From: a virus
Lineage: Duplodnaviria; Heunggongvirae; Uroviricota; Caudoviricetes
DNA length: 40,315 nt
IMG/VR virus record: IMGVR_UViG_2541047797_000007
Strand: one strand, 5' to 3'
Position 1 is the first letter of the stretch, and every line of letters starts with the position of its first letter. This document shows positions 3,159-33,498 of the stretch, one piece after another. Made by a program: the position numbers and the translations under genes. The notes below the pieces were generated by a model that saw nothing but the letters and a program-made list of their open reading frames with translations, was not told where the DNA came from and searched no databases.

Positions 3159-5621
3159 TCAATTCCCTGTTAATTGCAAAACTTGCTCTTCCAGCTTTTT
3201 AACCCTGCGTCTCATCATCGCAGATTCCAGAATCAGAGCCTCTTCATAACGGATACCGTAACATTCACCAGCCTCGACGGCTTCGCGTACCAGAACCTTT
3301 GTCTGTATAAGTGGGTAAACTCCTGCAGAATGCTCTTCTTCCGTCACATCCCTGTATTCTGCCGGGGTCTCATTCCACTTGTCATAACAGATAAATGCCA
3401 GTCGTGACACATCTATGCCTTCATTCTGAAATACACTGATAACATGCTGCGCAACTGCACCAAAGTGCCATCTTGCTCCGTCTTTACCTTTCACTTCGAT
3501 CCTGTCAAGGTACTGGTATGAAACCCATTCCACTCTTTCCCATGCGTCCAGTATTTTCTCATCAATAACCTCTGGAGCAGTCTTGAAACGCGCATCGGAC
3601 AGCACCGTAAACGCTGACTGGGTAAATCCCCCCGACCATGCACGACCAGCCAACCCAAGAGAATAAGTATTCGTTGTCGATGGTGTCATGGCTGAATCAG
3701 AAAACTGTATATATTCTGAATTTCCAGTAGATATTCGAATATTTCCATTTATTAGCGACATAGTGCCTTTAGTATTATCACTATTGAATAATTTCAATTG
3801 CGAACTTATACCGCCTCCCACAGCCAGAGATACATCGCCTTCAGCAAGCATTCTGAATTTATCTGCAGAAACAAGCGTCTGGTTAGCAAGGTTAAAATAT
3901 TTAACCCACCATTCAAAACGCCCTGACATAGTCCCAACGTACTGACCAAGCGCAGGGACGTGAACAACATTGCTATTTGTAGTGCCGTCTATACTGGAAA
4001 TACCAGTCACCGCTGATGCAGAACTCAGAATATTATTTCTGTCACCCGGATGTTTAATTTCAACAAAGTTCCTGATACACCCTTCCTCGAAGGTAACCAC
4101 GCCGGAAGAACTATACATGGGGAATATTGACGCATAATTACTGCGTGCAGCATCTAAGAAACGAATGGTTGTAGATGTCTGCAGATCTCCTGATTCATTT
4201 TTCCCATCACACCCAGTCATTAGAATATTACTGGCAATATTATTATTTCCCTGAACGGTGACGCCGTGCGCCTGCTTTGCGTCCGATTCAGAGTAATCAA
4301 CCAGCACATCCGAAATCAGGTTACCAGTCCCCTTGCCAACAACTACTGCGGCGTATTTTGGGTTGTTAGCCATTACACTGCTAATGATATTATTCGTTGG
4401 GGCAGTTTCCGTCTCAGTTCCATTGTAAACAACGTGCTGACACTCTTCACCAATAACATTGCTGACAATGTTATATTTTGCTGCTGTTTTAAGTTCCACT
4501 GCACCAAACTGAGGATAATTTCTGGCTATCACACCATCAATTAGCGTATTTTGCGATGAATCAAAAAGCACACAACCTGCTTTTTTATTATTTGCGAACC
4601 CTAAATACTCTCCTCTTATATCTCTAACAATGTAACCTGACGGAATACCATTATCCGGATAAGCGATCAAGCTAAATCCTGGTCCTCGCGTATTTGTAAA
4701 TCTGATATTTTTAACCGATACATCATGGCCACCTGAAAATGACACCTGGTGTCCCTGCACACTATCATCTGATTTATTTCCCATAATTGTTAGCGTACTA
4801 AGCATGCCACCATCGGGCATGTTAAAAACCAGATGATTACCATCTCTGTCATACTGTTTTATCGTTCCCCCACCTGTTCCGTACAAGCCACAACGTGAAA
4901 GAGAAACTAAAGATGTATTGAATACCCCTTCCGGAACAAAAACACTGCTAAACGAATGTAATGATTTTGTAAAAGCATCCTTGTTATCATTTAAGATTCC
5001 ATTTTGAGCTCCAAAATCCTTAATGCTGACACCATCACGCATCTTATCCTGGAACGTTCTGTATACCGCTCCAGAACCATACTGAATAAACCAACCAAAA
5101 CCACCAATAACTCCGGCGATTGCAGCATCGACATAATTACGCATTGAGCGATTATTTACAGCGTCCTGCTCAAGTGATGGATCGGCAAGGTTAGATATTC
5201 TGTTTTGCTTTGCATCGTAATATTTTGCAAGCAAAGATGGTTTCATCAATGCACGTCTGAACCACCCAAAACATCGCTGGATCAGCATCGTCAGGTAGTC
5301 AAATGCATCCTCATGAACTTCGGGGAAAAATTTTCCCTGATTGCGAAGATCAGTCTCCTGCACCACATCAAGCACACGCTCTATCGTGATTCGCCAGCCA
5401 GCAGCAAGCGGCGACGGAAGAACCACTGCACCGCCACTATAAGTTCCCGCCCCTGTTACCGTATAACCAGCATCCAGCACTAGTTTTGTAACGTTACCGT
5501 TAAGGTCAGACACCTGAACAACCAGGTCGGATTTTTTGAAAATACGGAAGGTATACGGAAATGATGTCGTAACGCCGTTACCTGTGTATTCGTTGTGGTC
5601 AACTTCGGTTGAGACCGTCAT
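3159..5621 (-). CDS. Tailspike: conserved N-terminal particle-binding domain, beta-helix body, C-terminal intramolecular chaperone (peptidase S74-like) domain
   Basis: 820 aa. The N-terminus MTVSTEVDHNEYTGNGVTTSFPYTFRIF... is the adaptor shared by epsilon15/phiV10-type tailspikes. The centre is rich in beta-helix-like repeats (NIRFTNTRGPGFS..). The last 146 aa start at S-D-A-R-F-K (nt 3162-3599), the autocleaving chaperone motif of endosialidase / T5 L-shaped fibres. Confidence 0.85.
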   Translation of the reverse strand: MTVSTEVDHNEYTGNGVTTSFPYTFRIFKKSDLVVQVSDLNGNVTKLVLDAGYTVTGAGTYSGGAVVLPSPLAAGWRITIERVLDVVQETDLRNQGKFFPEVHEDAFDYLTMLIQRCFGWFRRALMKPSLLAKYYDAKQNRISNLADPSLEQDAVNNRSMRNYVDAAIAGVIGGFGWFIQYGSGAVYRTFQDKMRDGVSIKDFGAQNGILNDNKDAFTKSLHSFSSVFVPEGVFNTSLVSLSRCGLYGTGGGTIKQYDRDGNHLVFNMPDGGMLSTLTIMGNKSDDSVQGHQVSFSGGHDVSVKNIRFTNTRGPGFSLIAYPDNGIPSGYIVRDIRGEYLGFANNKKAGCVLFDSSQNTLIDGVIARNYPQFGAVELKTAAKYNIVSNVIGEECQHVVYNGTETETAPTNNIISSVMANNPKYAAVVVGKGTGNLISDVLVDYSESDAKQAHGVTVQGNNNIASNILMTGCDGKNESGDLQTSTTIRFLDAARSNYASIFPMYSSSGVVTFEEGCIRNFVEIKHPGDRNNILSSASAVTGISSIDGTTNSNVVHVPALGQYVGTMSGRFEWWVKYFNLANQTLVSADKFRMLAEGDVSLAVGGGISSQLKLFNSDNTKGTMSLINGNIRISTGNSEYIQFSDSAMTPSTTNTYSLGLAGRAWSGGFTQSAFTVLSDARFKTAPEVIDEKILDAWERVEWVSYQYLDRIEVKGKDGARWHFGAVAQHVISVFQNEGIDVSRLAFICYDKWNETPAEYRDVTEEEHSAGVYPLIQTKVLVREAVEAGECYGIRYEEALILESAMMRRRVKKLEEQVLQLTGN

Positions 5622-5674
5622 GTTAAATCTCCAGATAGTCGCAGCACCCGTTGCGCCGCATATCTGGTTATTCT

Positions 5675-5696
5675 ATTACCTGAAAAACCACATATG
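5675..5696 (-). promoter_or_regulatory. Conserved motif (minus strand CATATGTGGTT-N5-GGTAAT) upstream of the tailspike/lysis cassette; candidate activator-dependent late promoter
   Basis: 18 of 23 positions are identical to a copy at 24506-24527 upstream of the portal operon. A TAGAAT -10-like hexamer follows on the minus strand, with no -35 match. Confidence 0.4.
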
Positions 5697-5724
5697 GATA
5701 GAAAGAGTATGAATACGAATAGAT

Positions 5725-5741
5725 ATTACCTTTCGGGTAAT
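5725..5741. promoter_or_regulatory. 17-bp operator-like palindrome ATTACCTTTCGGGTAAT
   Basis: Perfect TTACC-N5-GGTAA dyad, one of 15 copies in the prophage. Abuts a TTGCAA -35-like hexamer (5742-5747). Confidence 0.65.
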
Positions 5742-5779
5742 TTGCAAAACGTGCTGGATAGCAAACAAATTATTTGATA

Positions 5780-5795
5780 CTGTATAAATATACAG
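5780..5795. promoter_or_regulatory. LexA (SOS) box
   Basis: taCTGTATAAATATACAGtt is a perfect CTGT-N8-ACAG with an AT-rich centre. It lies 22 nt upstream of ATG 5818. Confidence 0.8.
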
Positions 5796-5817
5796 TTATT
5801 GCATGGAGAAGATTAAG

Positions 5818-6075
5818 ATGCAGCAGTATCACTATCCACTGGAAGAGGGATTTACCGAAAGGATTCACACGCCGGGAGGCGTCAGGTCACTGGTGGAGGG
5901 ATCGCACTTGATGAAATTACTCCGGGATCTCGATAAGGATGGATTTAATGTCGATGGCCCACTTGCCGAACTGACTGCACTGATTAACTACGTCACCAGC
6001 TCACAGATGTCTATGCAGGATCTGCAAACACATCTCGACTATTGTGCCGAACAATTACGAAAACAAACCAGATAA
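5818..6075 (+). CDS. Small SOS-controlled antirepressor candidate (paralog of the Ant C-terminal domain)
   Basis: 85 aa from the second ATG of ORF 5803..6075 (SD GGAG 5806-5809, 8-nt spacing). About 40% identical over about 77 aa to the C-terminus of the 218-aa antirepressor (shared PL..G...IH.P.GV..L.E.S.LM.LL..L..DG..V.G..AELT......Y........D.QTH..Y). A LexA box lies directly upstream. Confidence 0.7.
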   Translation: MQQYHYPLEEGFTERIHTPGGVRSLVEGSHLMKLLRDLDKDGFNVDGPLAELTALINYVTSSQMSMQDLQTHLDYCAEQLRKQTR

Positions 6076-6078
6076 GGT

Positions 6079-6107
6079 TTGCAATTACCAAATGGAGTGC
6101 TTATATT
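6079..6107 (+). promoter_or_regulatory. Sigma70-type promoter of the c4-like RNA/ant unit
   Basis: TTGCAA (6079-6084), 17-nt spacer, TATATT (6102-6107). The predicted +1 falls inside operator 6106-6122. Confidence 0.65.
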
Positions 6108-6122
6108 TACCTTTGCGGTAAA
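6106..6122. promoter_or_regulatory. 17-bp operator-like palindrome TTTACCTTTGCGGTAAA
   Basis: TTACC-N5-GGTAA dyad overlapping the -10/+1 of the promoter at 6079-6107. Confidence 0.65.
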
Positions 6123-6211
6123 TTTACATCGCACTCCTCTTGTGCCATAGTAATCGGGCACTGGCAAAATCCAGTGCCGGGATTGGTCTCCCGGATTACT
6201 AAGTGGCGCAT

Positions 6212-6234
6212 ACCACGCCAGACGTGGTTTTTTT
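6212..6234 (+). terminator. Intrinsic terminator/attenuator inside the ant leader
   Basis: Stem ACCACG (6212-6217) / CGTGGT (6223-6228) with loop CCAGA, followed by a run of 7 T (6228-6234). An alternative helix 6204-6208 : 6216-6220 competes with it. Confidence 0.6.
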
Positions 6235-6264
6235 ATGCGTATAGCACAGTCATGCCAGAATTAT

Positions 6265-6340
6265 GGTGGGCTGAATGGGGGTCCGAAAGGACGCCGGTAC
6301 CACTTAGGCCGGTAAGACCAACTCCGTTCAGTTCACCACC
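6265..6340 (+). ncRNA. c4-like antisense RNA (P1/P7 immI type) controlling the antirepressor gene
   Basis: 76-nt multi-helix element. Closing helices are 6265-6269:6336-6340 and 6271-6278:6324-6331. Inside are a GTCC-GAAA-GGAC hairpin (6281-6292) and a CCGG hairpin with an 11-nt loop (6294-6312). Loop CCACTTAG (6300-6307) and single-stranded AGACCAA (6315-6321) are complementary to CTAAGTGG/TTGGTCT boxes found both upstream (6199-6206 / 6183-6189) and downstream (6375-6382 / 6347-6353, overlapping the ant SD). No credible ORF. Confidence 0.65.
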
Positions 6341-6392
6341 ATCTGATTGGTCTCAGCGGTGGTGATGTAATTCGCTAAGTGGAGACGCCATC

Positions 6393-7049
6393 ATGAACGC
6401 TCAACTCATCCCCGTATTCAACGGCACTATATCTAACGAAACAGCCCTACTTTGTAATGCCCGCGATCTGCACGCTTTTTTAGGTGTTAAAAAGGTGTTT
6501 GCAGCATGGATTACAAATCGCATATCAGAATACGAATTCATTGAAAATCAAGACTATATTTTGCTTTCCAATTTGGGAAAGCAAACATCTGGTAGAGGCG
6601 GCCACAACCGCAAAGAGTACCACCTCACCCTTGATACAGCCAAAGAGCTGGCGATGGTCGAGCGTAACGAAAAAGGTCGTCAGGTACGACGCTACTTCAT
6701 TGAATGCGAGAAACGTTTAAGACAACAAGAAACAAAAGTGGAGAAGGTCTTGTCAGGCTTCATGCCCGCCATTATGGAGGCGATCAAGCTGGAAGACAAA
6801 AAAGAATACAGTGCCCCGCTGAAGCCCGGCTACCGCAGCCTGATTCATTCGCCGTCTGGTGTTCTCGGCCTGACGGAGAACTCACTGCTGATGAATCTGC
6901 TGAACCAGTTACAGGAAGACGGGCACGACGTATCGGGCGCGGCGGCGGAACTGACCACCATGTTCTGCTACATCGTCGGTGTGAGCAAATGCCTGCGTGA
7001 TATCCAGACCCACGCGGAGTACATCAACGACAAGGCAGGGTTCTTCTGA
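6393..7049 (+). CDS. ant: Antirepressor, AntA/AntB-type N-terminal domain plus C-terminal domain shared with the 85-aa protein
   Basis: 218 aa. The N-terminal 110 aa match the AntA/AntB pattern (ARDLH.FL.V...F..WI..RI..Y.F.E..DY........GG.....[12 protein letters not shown]....G...R.YFIE.E). SD GGAG 6381-6384. Terminator downstream. Confidence 0.8.
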
Positions 7050-7058
7050 CAGAACGGC

Positions 7059-7080
7059 GGCACAGGGATGTGCCTTTAAA
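7059..7080 (+). terminator. Intrinsic terminator after ant
   Basis: Stem GGCACA (7059-7064) / TGTGCC (7069-7074) with loop GGGA, followed by TTTAAATAATT. Confidence 0.6.
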
Positions 7081-7093
7081 TAATTCTGTACGA

Positions 7094-7239
7094 TTGCAGA
7101 CAGGGGGGTGAATAGAGTACTATTACCTTACGGGTGATCCATAGCGATTAGGCACCGATACAGGAGGAGCCCACATGAGAAAATTTGACGAGTACGAAGG
7201 CGTTTAACATTCGGATAGTTCATTTACCCTAATGGTAAA
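7094..7239 (+). promoter_or_regulatory. Promoter/operator region of the 211-aa orphan gene (two operator palindromes)
   Basis: TTGCAG (7094-7099), 18-nt spacer, TACTAT (7118-7123). Operator ATTACCTTACGGGTGAT (7122-7138) overlaps the -10/+1. A second operator TTTACCCTAATGGTAAA sits at 7223-7239. A 10-codon mini-ORF with a strong SD lies between them. Confidence 0.55.
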
Positions 7240-7278
7240 TCCCGCTTAAAGAAGCATCTATATATTATGAGGTGATGT

Positions 7279-7914
7279 ATGCCACAACAACTGCTGAATC
7301 CGGCAAAGGTAACTGAGGTTTTCGCTCATCTGAACGAAACTCCAGACAACCGCGCCCTGTATTCAGAGTTAGTGAACGGCAACGATGTCACATCTGATGT
7401 CAAAGGCGTTTCTCTGGCTCCTGGATACCGCGTTGTCCGTGTAGACGATCGTAAGAAAGGCGAGATTCCACAGGCGCACTTTGAACTGTCATTGATAAAT
7501 GACCTCACCGAAGAGGTAGTGTATTACAATCGTGTCATTATCCAGCCTGACAGCTATCTTAACTGCCGTCCTGTCACGCAGATATTGGTATGGAGAACCC
7601 AGAAGCCTAAGCATCGTGCTGTGCTTCATGATTTCGCCGGCATCATCTTCATGAACTACCTCTTGGAACGGTACGATATCATCGTGTCAGATCGCAACCA
7701 GACTCATGAAGGCATGTCGTTCTGGCAGGCTCGCATGTATGACGCACTGGAACTTGGCCTCCACCTCTATGGTTACGACATGATGACATGCGAGCTGATA
7801 GAGATGAATAACGAGGAAGAGCTTGAGAAAGGTGAAACCTGGTTGTGGGGTGATGCGGAAAACTTCCAAAACAGATTGGCCATAATTTCAAAGCATAAGC
7901 TGCCAATAAAATAG
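7279..7914 (+). CDS. Hypothetical protein, 211 aa, accessory (moron-like) cassette
   Basis: Clean ORF with SD GAGGTGA (7270-7276) upstream of ATG 7279, its own promoter/operators and its own terminator. I recognise no motif. Confidence 0.8.
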   Translation: MPQQLLNPAKVTEVFAHLNETPDNRALYSELVNGNDVTSDVKGVSLAPGYRVVRVDDRKKGEIPQAHFELSLINDLTEEVVYYNRVIIQPDSYLNCRPVTQILVWRTQKPKHRAVLHDFAGIIFMNYLLERYDIIVSDRNQTHEGMSFWQARMYDALELGLHLYGYDMMTCELIEMNNEEELEKGETWLWGDAENFQNRLAIISKHKLPIK

Positions 7915-7920
7915 TTCTTT

Positions 7921-7943
7921 AAGCCCGCGACGCGGGCTTTTTT
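7921..7943 (+). terminator. Intrinsic terminator of the 211-aa gene
   Basis: Stem GCCCG (7923-7927) / CGGGC (7933-7937), followed by TTTTTT (7938-7943). Confidence 0.8.
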
Positions 7944-30564: not shown

Positions 30565-31350
30565 TTACTTGATAAATCCTGCCGCCTTTCCCCGCCTGTA
30601 TTCCTCTATCAGCCACTGCGCCGGTGTTATTCCCCCCAGGGTGGCGGCGTTAGGCATGCACCCGAAACTTCGCCCTGGTGGATGGTAAACGTCTCTCCCA
30701 GTGTCAGGAGGCGTACTCATGGGTTCTGGCTTTGCCTGTATGCTGATCACCGGATCGGGTATCTGCTGTCCGGAAGCCACCTTTTTCGCCCAATCATCGA
30801 GCAGCCTGCGCGCGTGTTTCTCAACCTCAATCTCGCTAAGCTGGCGCTGATACATTGCACGGCGGGTATCACATACGACCCAGTACATAACCGGATGTCG
30901 CCACGGGAATCTTTCGGGACCACCAGGATATAAACTTTTTTCCTTGCTGTACCGGTGAAACTCCGCCATCACATCGTCAATGGTGACGCCAAGAACCATC
31001 TTGCTGTCTTTACACCACTTGATAAATTGCCCAGGCGACGGCCAGAACGGAGATTCACTGGCGCGGGCGTGGCGCATACCAGCAGAAACCTGTTCACGGG
31101 TTCTGATCCCCCCTTCGGCAAACGCAGCAATCCACTGCTGTTTTGCAGCAACTTCCTGCTCTGGCGTCTTCAGGTTGGTTACCACTGCCGCCGGAAACAG
31201 TTGTTTCAGCTGTTTGAAAAGGGCATCAACAAGCCTCTCTGCTGACATGTTCACCACGTTGTCATTGTTGGTGTACTGATGCTCATAACCTGACATGCGA
31301 GAAAGGGCTTCTCCGTCACGGTTTTGTATCGCGGTAAAAACGTTGTTCAC
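30565..31350 (-). CDS. Replication protein P-like (helicase loader)
   Basis: Similar to lambda P (LFPA......E....QW..AF.E.GI.T.EQV.AGMR.AR....PF.PSPGQF..WC). The preferred start is GTG 31350 (SD GGAGGA, GTGA overlap with the O-like stop). The track ATG at 31365 is the alternative. Confidence 0.75.
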   Translation of the reverse strand: MNNVFTAIQNRDGEALSRMSGYEHQYTNNDNVVNMSAERLVDALFKQLKQLFPAAVVTNLKTPEQEVAAKQQWIAAFAEGGIRTREQVSAGMRHARASESPFWPSPGQFIKWCKDSKMVLGVTIDDVMAEFHRYSKEKSLYPGGPERFPWRHPVMYWVVCDTRRAMYQRQLSEIEVEKHARRLLDDWAKKVASGQQIPDPVISIQAKPEPMSTPPDTGRDVYHPPGRSFGCMPNAATLGGITPAQWLIEEYRRGKAAGFIK

Positions 31351-32162
31351 AAGAAATCCTCCCATGCTTCAGGGCTGTTCCAGTGCGGAACGTTGTTATC
31401 AGGTAATGTTGATTGCTTCTGTCTGCTAATCTGCAGCCGCCTTGCCAGCTTCTGCTCCCACTGTGCCTGATGGTATGCCTTACCCTCAGCCATCCAGTAA
31501 ATTCTGAACTCTGCAAGTTCCTGTGCCGTTGGCAGACTGTCCAGGTAGATCCCCTGCAATGAGCTTTTCCGAAGAAAGTCATCTGATGGTTGCCATTGTT
31601 CATGCATGACAAATTTGCCTAATTGCCCTGGCCCACCAGGAGGAACAAAGTTATTCATCACGGCGTTGTTTGCGCCGGGGTCATGAGGCACAGAATCCCC
31701 GGTTTTTGTCCTGCTCTCCCTCTCTTGGTTAAATGACTGGTTATATGACTGGTTCTGGATCCCGTTTTTGGGATCATTCAACATCCCGTTTTTGGGATCA
31801 TTCAACATCCCGTTTTTGGGTATATTCCCGTTTTCGGGAACATTACCGTTTTCGGGTTCATTACAGCCTTCTAGGTTGCCTTTAATGTTCCCGTTTTTGG
31901 TTATATTAAGAGAGAAAACCCGCACTCTTTTTGTCGCTCCCTTTCTCTCTCCGGTATCTGAAATAAGCCCCATTTTCATGAGCGATATAAGTCCGGCCTG
32001 CACGGTTTTTTTATTCAGGCAAGTGTCTTTAACGAGGCGTTCTATGCTGGGGTAGCAGAGGTTATATTCATCGGCTCTGTCAGCCATCGAGAGCAGTATG
32101 AGCTTTAATGACGAGCTACCTGGATCTGTCTCCCAGGCCCAATCTGTTGCATGTCTGCTCAT
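31347..32162 (-). CDS. Replication initiator (O-like) with N-terminal winged-HTH and internal iteron-encoded repeats
   Basis: 271 aa. SD GGAG upstream. The N-terminus (LKLILLSMADRADEYNLCYPSIERLVKDT.LNKKTV...L..L...GLI) is HTH-like. Peptide repeats PENGN/PKNGMLND are encoded by the iterons. Confidence 0.75.
   Translation of the reverse strand: MSRHATDWAWETDPGSSSLKLILLSMADRADEYNLCYPSIERLVKDTCLNKKTVQAGLISLMKMGLISDTGERKGATKRVRVFSLNITKNGNIKGNLEGCNEPENGNVPENGNIPKNGMLNDPKNGMLNDPKNGIQNQSYNQSFNQERESRTKTGDSVPHDPGANNAVMNNFVPPGGPGQLGKFVMHEQWQPSDDFLRKSSLQGIYLDSLPTAQELAEFRIYWMAEGKAYHQAQWEQKLARRLQISRQKQSTLPDNNVPHWNSPEAWEDFL
31758..31902. repeat. Origin iterons (6 copies of TCCCGTTTTTGGGA-like dyad)
   Basis: Cores lie at 31760-31773, 31784-31797, 31808-31821, 31826-31839, 31844-31857 and 31889-31902. 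Spacings are 24, 24, 18, 18 and 45 bp. They lie inside the O-like gene, as in lambda ori. Confidence 0.75.
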
Positions 32163-32177
32163 GATTAATCTCCGCTA

Positions 32178-32378
32178 TCAGCTTGAATGTTGTGGGGAGG
32201 AATTAATCATGATCTGCTTAATCTCTGCCCTGATGCGACGGTTTGATTCCATGGTGCACTCAACACAGTGTCCGTTGTAAACCCAGCGTTCACTGTCATG
32301 TCCGTGCTTACATGGTTTTCCGGTGTAGTAGCGTTTAAGTCCGCGCTTTGCGGCATCAATACGTGTAATGATTTCCAT
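32178..32378 (-). CDS. Small zinc-ribbon protein (66 aa)
   Basis: Start taken at MEIITRIDAAK. The motif YTGKPCKHGH....R....G.CVEC recurs in small prophage proteins. The longer track ORF begins in an implausible hydrophobic leader. Confidence 0.55.
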   Translation of the reverse strand: MEIITRIDAAKRGLKRYYTGKPCKHGHDSERWVYNGHCVECTMESNRRIRAEIKQIMINSSPQHSS

Positions 32379-32913: not shown

Positions 32914-33498
32914 ATGAAAAGTATCCAGGACGTCCGCAGGCAAAATCTCAACGACTTGATCGACCGTGAATTCAATGGTGTTCAGACGCGGATGGCAGAA
33001 AAACTTGGAACTCAGGCAAATCTGGTAAACCGCTGGGCTCTTGGCAAGAAGGTTATCGGCGACCAGGTTGCGCGAAAAATTGAAGCTGCCGCCAATAAAC
33101 CCCGTAACTGGCTTGATATCGATCGCTCGCTTTCTCAGGAAGGTTTTCAGCCTGTCGGCCCAAGCGACATTGGTCAGCTGGCGGCTCACAACCTAGAACG
33201 CTGGATGAGCGAAAGCCGCGACCTTTCAACGCAGGGAAAACTTCACCGCGCATCCGGCGTCGCCCAGGTGACAATCAGCCGCCTGTTAAACAATGAGGTC
33301 AGTGTTTCCATTTCCACCCTGGAGAATGTTGCATCCGCATTCGGGCGTCACGGCTATGAATTACTGATTCACCCGCACGACCCTGCGACCATCAACTATG
33401 ACCGCTCGCGCTACGCATTGTTACCTGAAACAGAGAAGGCAAAGATCGAAAGTTACATTGAATTTGTCATCAGCCAGAACGAAAAAAACAAACAATAA
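32914..33498 (+). CDS. Prophage repressor with two tandem XRE/CI-type HTH domains and no S24 peptidase domain
   Basis: 194 aa. HTH 1 is QTRMAEKLGTQANLVNRWALGKK. HTH 2 is GKLHRASGVAQVTISRLLNNEVS. No Ala-Gly/Ser-Lys autocleavage module. Divergent from the cro-like gene. Terminator downstream. Confidence 0.75.
   Translation: MKSIQDVRRQNLNDLIDREFNGVQTRMAEKLGTQANLVNRWALGKKVIGDQVARKIEAAANKPRNWLDIDRSLSQEGFQPVGPSDIGQLAAHNLERWMSESRDLSTQGKLHRASGVAQVTISRLLNNEVSVSISTLENVASAFGRHGYELLIHPHDPATINYDRSRYALLPETEKAKIESYIEFVISQNEKNKQ

Follow-up and report, generated by a model that had tools for sequence, protein, structure and literature searches.

Two genes for related antirepressors lie close together in the viral record IMGVR_UViG_2541047797_000007, a 40,315-nt stretch of DNA (the window hereafter) that, judged by its sequence, belongs to a temperate Escherichia coli phage of the phiV10/epsilon15-like group (Uetakevirus). 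One encodes an 85-aa protein (small Ant or sAnt; ATG at 5818 to stop at 6075, plus strand) that is the ortholog of the Ant protein of Salmonella phage SPC32H and is preceded by a LexA (SOS) box. The other encodes a 218-aa protein (Ant2; 6393-7049, plus strand) whose sequence is that of a chimera, in which a generic AntA N-terminal domain common to Shiga toxin (Stx) phages is joined to a C-terminal domain that is an old paralog of small Ant. We consider it likely that the two genes serve a two-part antirepression scheme, in which a core SOS switch composed of LexA, small Ant and the phage repressor Rep would be supplemented by an optional immI-like cassette, with Ant2 hitting Rep through its C-terminal domain once Rep falls or on infection.

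The initial annotation of this region had placed an SOS box upstream of the 85-aa open reading frame (ORF) and had taken the product for a LexA-controlled antirepressor. The box (CTGTATAAATATACAG) is indeed found at 5780-5795 and, together with its flanks, agrees with the Escherichia coli consensus TACTGTATATATATACAGTA at 18 of 20 positions. Two matches to CTGT-N8-ACAG occur in the window against 0.40 expected, and only the one at the SOS box has an AT-rich spacer, the other being GC-rich. The motif GGAGA lies 8 nt upstream of the small ant ATG. The protein is 89% identical to the product of the SPC32H ant gene and matches chain E of PDB entry 5D50 ('Anti-repressor protein'; expectation value (E) 1.6e-47), its residues 2-84 falling on residues 3-85 of the chain, and it is under purifying selection, with a ratio of nonsynonymous to synonymous substitution rates (dN/dS) of 0.05-0.08. 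The box aligns with that of SPC32H column for column. The proposed LexA control is supported, and LexA presumably binds the box of the window phage. In all eight of the relatives compared, which comprise three Rep types and four host genera, the LexA box is found at -36 to -38 and an operator-type site at -89 to -92 from the ant start codon. Two sigma-70 promoter candidates for small ant, TGGATA-17 nt-TACTGT and TTGATA-17 nt-TATTGC, were picked by hand; both are weak and neither was assigned.

The ant regions of SPC32H and SPC32N differ by two bases, one of which alters the LexA box from CTGTATGTTTATACAG to a version ending in ATAAAG (CAG to AAG, a C-to-A change). Mutation of the LexA site is said, in the abstract of Kim and Ryu from 2013, to render Ant constitutive, and the difference between the SPC32H and SPC32N boxes fits this. 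From the SPC32H abstracts, Rep reportedly stays uncleaved on SOS induction, small Ant inactivates Rep, and LexA represses the ant promoter. [quoted passage not shown] A DNA-damaging microcin induces E. coli prophages of the phiV10 species (Uetakevirus) 21- to 47-fold. The window phage thus resembles the LexA-Ant-Rep switch of SPC32H (Kim & Ryu 2013 J Virol; Kim et al. 2016 PNAS; PDB 5D50, 5D4Z) in the sequence and size of Ant, in the positions of the gene and of its LexA box, in the TTACC-N5-GGTAA site upstream, and in having a Rep homolog without a cleavage domain; it differs in that the Rep proteins are only 42-43% identical and that a second antirepressor, an isrK-like leader and a C4 RNA are all missing from SPC32H.

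The presumed common target of both antirepressors is the 194-aa Rep (32914-33498, plus strand), already singled out as the repressor in the initial annotation. It is homologous to SPC32H Rep and matches chain A of 5D50 ('Repressor') with E 4.1e-42. HTH_3 is its only Pfam domain, and the Pfam scan found no Peptidase_S24 (self-cleavage) domain. Palindromes of the form TTACC-N5-GGTAA with at most one mismatch number 14 in the window against 0.62 expected, and their sequence suggests that Rep binds them in the window phage. One of them (TTACCTTTCGGGTAA, 5726-5740), which corresponds to the operator previously proposed at 5725-5741, precedes the start codon of small ant by ~91 nt and would be a Rep site there; it could also be part of the divergent tailspike promoter. 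Another (TTACCTTTGCGGTAA, 6107-6121) overlaps the -10/+1 region of the promoter-like site that precedes the second antirepressor and is kept in relatives. Pairs of such sites flank rep (32796/32844 and 33556/33618), two more are located upstream of a 211-aa ORF (7123-7137, with one mismatch, and 7224-7238), and others occur at 24569, 27207/27225 and 30451/30513. Many of these sites are paired at a spacing of 48 or 62 bp, which would suit a tetrameric repressor. All eight Uetakevirus genomes that were compared have the same half-sites in syntenic places, although their Rep N-terminal domains are only 53-55% identical.

Ant2 contains an AntA domain (Pfam PF08346, 91.8 bits against a gathering threshold of 27) at residues 22-92 (6456-6668) and an Ant-like domain at residues 137-213 (6801-7031), with a match to phrog_450 (E 3.9e-36). 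Residues 2-75 of small Ant align without gaps with residues 137-210 of Ant2, with 31 of 74 positions identical (42%, BLASTP E 3e-16), in good agreement with the ~40% over ~77 residues of its C-terminal third reported earlier. Since the Ant-like domain of Ant2 also matches chain E of 5D50 (E 4.6e-14), the proposal that the phage encodes its putative repressor-targeting module twice is upheld. All 20 residues that are invariant among the aligned small-Ant relatives are retained in the Ant2 domain, and fused domains of this kind have dN/dS values of 0.12-0.28, indicative of purifying selection. Phage ZX5 (vB_EcoP_ZX5), whose Rep is 99.5% identical to that of the window and which likewise has a small Ant and an isrK and C4 leader, encodes in ORF4 a protein with a Bro-N N-terminal domain that is identical to Ant2 from residue 139 to the C-terminus. 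It differs from the window phage in this N-terminal domain, Bro-N versus AntA, and in its C4 type, CTAAAAGG versus CTAAGTGG. Overexpression of ORF4 lowered the lysogen count from 1e9 to 1e6 (PMC9782041). A term search of the same paper returned neither LexA nor SPC32H, so ORF4 was linked to neither.

The Ant fold defines a very small family: when 1.84 billion cluster representatives were searched exhaustively with a hidden Markov model (HMM), only 62 matched. The fold is not modelled in Pfam or NCBIfam, the sole Pfam match being a spurious DUF724, and scans of NCBIfam and PADLOC returned nothing for either antirepressor. A word-indexed protein search with small Ant recovered close stand-alone relatives only and no Pfam domains, the fused forms being found solely by the exhaustive HMM search. 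Among 50,697 phage records, the Ant-like domain is present in 34-35, all of them epsilon15-like, and a Rep homolog in 36, essentially the same set. In a rough neighbour-joining tree the sequences fall into two clades, one of stand-alone proteins, among them SPC32H Ant, and one that gathers all fused forms and a few 95-aa ORFs. Both clades are present together in the window, TL-2011b, Tyrion and Kp4865-1, from which the duplication is judged to be old.

Near-identical versions of the C-terminal domain (96-100%) are attached to AntA in the window and HEMP4, to Bro-N in ZX5, phiV10 and gp46 of TL-2011b, and to P22_AR_N in gp42 of TL-2011b. More diverged versions follow Bro-N in Tyrion (76% identical to that of the window) and Kp4865-1 (53%), and Phage_pRha (Rha) in metagenomic proteins. 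Conversely, an Stx2-phage AntA protein is 81% identical to Ant2 over residues 1-110 and then continues into a P22_AR_C domain. The joining of one C-terminal domain to AntA, Bro-N, P22_AR_N or Rha points to this domain as the part that targets Rep; the simplest reading of these sequences would be that the C-terminal module sets the repressor attacked and that the N-terminal domain is exchangeable. We infer that Ant2 contacts Rep through its C-terminal domain.

Further copies of the domain were seen in other surroundings. TL-2011b carries a third copy (31060-32244) in a unit resembling P22 immI, with an Arc-like repressor gene and a sar antisense RNA on the opposite strand (31231-31298); the P22_AR_N protein encoded there has 314 aa and an Ant-like C-terminus 96% identical to that of the window. 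In HEMP4, an AntA-Ant2 gene 99% identical to that of the window occupies another genomic position (1603-2387) and is preceded by an RNA of the sRNA-Xcc1 family, such as also stands, at 1665-1753, before the Stx-phage AntA gene, and an additional fused copy stands behind isrK and C4, adjoining small ant. Three loci in Klebsiella chromosomes (3665-4873) have a stand-alone ORF of 95-100 aa that belongs to the fused-type clade and lies in a small islet flanked by housekeeping genes of the host, alongside genes for an AlpA-like regulator and for a HicA toxin, the latter with a DUF1902 neighbour. This islet could be a prophage remnant or a satellite-like element borrowing the antirepressor.

The initial annotation also described the AntA copy as controlled by an operator, an attenuator and an antisense RNA, and counterparts of all three are present upstream of ant2. 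A consensus scan gave a promoter-like site (TTGCAA-17 nt-TATATT, 6079-6107, plus strand), a sequence match carrying no proof of function, which is kept in phiV10 and phiv142-3 and whose -10/+1 region lies under the operator-type site at 6107-6121; this overlap suggests that the site fires only once Rep is off or absent. It is followed by an isrK-like leader RNA (6158-6234, plus strand; Rfam RF01394, 67.7 bits against a cut-off of 50) that includes an intrinsic terminator (6212-6228, plus strand, from a terminator scan), and then by a C4-type antisense RNA (6259-6343; Rfam RF01695, 61.2 bits against a cut-off of 45) located upstream of ant2 on the same strand. The b' element of C4 (CCACTTAG, 6300-6307) lies within a hairpin loop in the predicted fold and is complementary to CTAAGTGG, which occurs as target b1 in the leader shortly before the terminator (6199-6206) and as target b2 overlapping the GGAG ribosome-binding site of ant2 (6375-6382). 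The a' element (AGACCAA, 6316-6322) is complementary to TTGGTCT, found as target a1 in the leader (6183-6189) and as target a2 downstream of C4 (6347-6353), all on the plus strand. When seven related cassettes are compared, changes in the C4 loops are matched by changes in both of their targets, element b occurring as CTAAGTGG, CTAAAAGG or CTACAAAGG and element a as GGTCT, GGCGT or GAGAC, which is good comparative evidence for functional pairing.

From the stop codon of small ant up to the isrK-like terminator, the scan found no other plus-strand terminator, and transcription released from LexA therefore probably enters the cassette. The whole cassette is absent from SPC32H, PAS61 and BUCT711, which marks it as an accessory inserted between small ant and a small membrane-protein gene. 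PAS61 Rep is 99% identical to the window Rep, and BUCT711 Rep is 99% identical to that of Kp4865-1. Some ORFs called in databases run across the C4 RNA, both in the window (6042-6365) and in ZX5, where an 'ash family protein' is annotated at 1441-1554 and the C4 match spans 1427-1512; these calls are probably spurious and mask the RNA gene.

The cassette has its closest counterparts in known second immunity regions. The immI region of P1 and P7 (c4, icd, ant) is part of a tripartite immunity and follows an a/b pairing logic, the P1 c4 RNA being processed from the same transcript that it controls. The window shares with it a C4-family RNA upstream of the antirepressor gene on the same strand, two C4 loops, each complementary to one target upstream and another downstream, with a ribosome-binding site among the places targeted, and specificity alleles that differ between phages sharing a repressor. 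A repressor-controlled promoter may be a further likeness, the window having an operator-type motif over the -10/+1 region of a consensus promoter match. The window differs in that target b2 lies on the ribosome-binding site of ant2 itself, that the ORF list contains no convincing icd-like coupled ORF between C4 and ant2 (no dedicated search was made), and that it has an isrK-like terminator leader, a repressor of another family and an SPC32H-Ant-type C-terminal domain. The P22 immI region (mnt, arc, sar, ant) is likewise a second immunity region in which an antirepressor is governed by its own small repressor and an antisense RNA. Exactly such a unit exists in TL-2011b, with its C-terminus replaced by the Ant-like domain, whereas the window has the C4 version instead of Arc/sar, and P22 Ant itself ends in P22_AR_C and not in an Ant-like domain.

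Two further systems share single features. In the isrK-orf45-anrP module of Gifsy-1, an IsrK-family RNA with a leaky terminator precedes an antirepressor-like gene that is translationally silent by default (PMC4825925); unlike Gifsy-1, the window has a C4 RNA between leader and gene, and no equivalent of orf45 was identified in it. Tum of phage 186 and GfoA/GfhA of the Gifsy phages are LexA-repressed small antirepressors that take the place of RecA-mediated repressor cleavage (PMC7380047; see also PMC3121763). Their likeness to small Ant is a functional analogy only, as scans of Pfam, PHROG and NCBIfam revealed no shared family and the proteins were not compared directly.

Taken together, the likely two-part scheme would operate as follows. 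LexA bound at 5780-5795 would keep the 85-aa Ant off until DNA damage and the SOS response remove LexA by cleavage. Small Ant would then be made and, as in SPC32H, would bind and inactivate the non-cleavable helix-turn-helix repressor Rep, and the loss of Rep would open the Rep-operated ant2 operon. The terminator of the isrK-like leader may be leaky, and the C4 RNA would limit or delay translation of Ant2, its two loops pairing with two sets of targets, the first within the leader and the second at the ribosome-binding site of ant2. Through its Ant-like domain, Ant2 would add a second wave of Rep inactivation and so reinforce the commitment to lysis. On infection, Ant2 may act as an anti-immunity factor whose expression is set by the C4 type, in the manner of P1/P7, between phages that share a Rep but have different C4 types. 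The order of events in this two-stage scheme is deduced from the arrangement of the sites: since Ant2 appears to be both repressed by Rep and gated by C4, it most likely acts after Rep begins to fall, or on infection.

Several observations weigh against this scheme. The window Rep is only 42-43% identical to SPC32H Rep, and 40% in the Ant-binding C-terminal domain, compared with 89% for small Ant, so that carrying over the SPC32H interaction assumes a conserved interface; this mismatch would mean that a small patch of conserved residues makes up the interface, or else that recombination has reassorted the two genes. No promoter could be placed for small ant, a consensus scan of 5700-5817 having found none. 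The AlphaFold2 model of Ant2, built from a 36-sequence alignment, has a mean predicted local distance difference test score (pLDDT) of 43.7 and a predicted template modelling score (pTM) of 0.29, and was discarded. The ZX5 experiment was a crude overexpression of the whole protein that does not distinguish which domain acts. Finally, the second copy of phiV10 is broken within the C-terminal domain by a 16-nt deletion (~4320-4335 of the phiV10 sequence examined), and the resulting frameshift splits the Bro-N antirepressor gene into PhiV10p23 and the 29-aa PhiV10p22. From its sequence, this type phage probably has no working second antirepressor, which makes the cassette dispensable, at least in phiV10.

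The initial annotation had gone on to suggest two separate induction inputs converging on one repressor. In its fullest form this explanation has the SOS response acting through LexA and small Ant, and a non-SOS signal lifting the isrK/C4 block on Ant2 in the lysogen, independently and in parallel. The contexts of the two genes do differ, the LexA box being found at the small gene only, and a second promoter-like site (6123-6151) lies just beyond the operator-type site. A trigger at the RNA level is conceivable too, given that Gifsy-1 IsrK turns on translation of the downstream antirepressor-like AnrP in trans (PMC4825925). However, the main promoter-like site of ant2 is under the Rep operator-type site, so Rep must already be off; with no terminator between small ant and the cassette, SOS transcription probably feeds the cassette as well; the cassette is an optional one, missing in phages with the same Rep; and no signal-sensing element was found. 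The claim of separate inputs is thus not sustained, we consider the parallel arrangement unlikely, and the same holds for Ant2 as an independent induction sensor. A different emphasis would make Ant2 mainly a weapon of anti-immunity and cross-talk, a differing C4 type allowing a phage, on superinfection or beside co-resident relatives, to escape the resident C4 RNA so that Ant2 inactivates the shared Rep, like P7 on a P1 lysogen; the P1/P7 logic invoked here is reportedly that of Citron and Schuster in 1990 and Heinrich et al. in 1995. At least three C4 specificity types with matched targets exist among phages with 99% identical Rep (the window versus phiV10, ZX5 and TL-2011b), the operator half-sites are alike across all Rep types, and the depositors of phiV10 annotated its copy of the gene as a 'putative anti-immunity protein', but a resident Rep would also meet the incoming ant2 promoter. 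As this explanation overlaps with the two-part scheme and differs only in which role dominates, it is anti-immunity as the main function that we find quite unlikely.

The shared C-terminal domain might also serve only for oligomerisation, or for co-assembly with small Ant, leaving the AntA domain to act on another target. Such a role would agree with the tetrameric state of SPC32H Ant (PMC9638917) and with the many other C-termini to which AntA, Bro-N and Rha N-terminal domains are joined. It is difficult to reconcile with four unrelated N-terminal domains carrying an almost identical C-terminal domain within one repressor group, with the presence of the domain only where Rep is, with the stand-alone form being by itself a complete antirepressor in SPC32H, and with the ZX5 (Bro-N) and window (AntA) proteins having only the C-terminal part in common; we therefore regard it as very unlikely. 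It seems extremely improbable that the window phage carries its second copy as a mere passenger, decaying and currently without a role: the phiV10 copy is frameshifted, and neither PAS61 and BUCT711 nor any Salmonella member has the cassette, but the window ORF is intact with dN/dS in the range 0.12-0.28, C4 and both of its targets are intact and covarying, ~79 complete E. coli genomes have at least 80% of the arrangement, and the ZX5 homolog is active. The idea that the second copy is tuned to the divergent E. coli-type Rep, leaving small Ant without a partner, was rejected, as PAS61 has a window-type Rep and small Ant only.

A reading that goes beyond the two-part scheme, and that we put forward as a tentative possibility, is that the ~80-aa Ant fold is a portable 'warhead' for repressor disassembly, for which AntA, Bro-N, P22_AR_N and Rha, large N-terminal families present in countless phage 'antirepressors', are interchangeable carriers that do not set repressor specificity. 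As corollaries, tetramers may be assembled from a mixture of the small and the fused paralog, and the C4 specificity alleles may give P1/P7-style heteroimmunity among podoviruses sharing one Rep. If true, this would be the first structure-anchored assignment of the repressor-binding half of such antirepressors.

The surroundings of the two genes agree with the proposed affiliation of the phage. Positions 5600-7300 of the window are 98% identical to phiv142-3 and ~90% identical to phiV10, and the gene order is that of the epsilon15/phiV10 group (Uetakevirus): a minus-strand tailspike gene, small plus-strand genes, and then a gene for a small membrane protein and one for an 824-aa virion protein on the minus strand, the position of ant between the tailspike gene and the 824-aa gene being syntenic with SPC32H. 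The N-terminus of the tailspike (3159-5621, minus strand) is of the epsilon15 type; a beta-helix region follows, and the protein ends in an intramolecular chaperone domain of the Peptidase_S74 family. Its receptor-binding parts vary among relatives. Downstream of ant2, the 211-aa ORF (7279-7914) belongs to phrog_1349, has operator-type sites upstream and is followed by a strong terminator (7921-7939); it has no match in Pfam, NCBIfam or PADLOC. It is absent in the six related genomes compared and has the look of cargo. Among 5,426 complete E. coli genomes, at least 79 have 80% or more of the window's arrangement, and more have the Bro-N variant.

Much of what bears on this region is already published, namely the small antirepressor under LexA control, the repressor that it binds and the structure that the two form together, as well as the C4 and IsrK RNAs, the AntA/Bro-N 'antirepressors' and the activity of the ZX5 protein. 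Three points appear in none of the papers that could be searched and may be new: that both antirepressors share one Rep-directed domain; that this domain has been shuffled among four N-terminal domain families and placed under three kinds of regulation (LexA, isrK/C4 and, in TL-2011b, Arc/sar); and that C4 specificity alleles vary among phages sharing a Rep. The outcome is a useful annotation and a testable idea and not a new kind of system. For a common family of E. coli prophages, it implies that the antirepressor triggered by SOS is the 'hypothetical protein' encoded beside the tailspike gene, and that what is annotated as 'antirepressor' is a copy of the second tier. The domain swaps found in nature suggest a way to separate the roles of the two halves of Bro-N/AntA-type antirepressors, and from the C4 specificity types it can be predicted which related prophages are able to induce or bypass each other. 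Such cross-talk between prophages would be relevant to pathogenic E. coli, TL-2011b having come from an outbreak strain of enterohaemorrhagic E. coli (EHEC).

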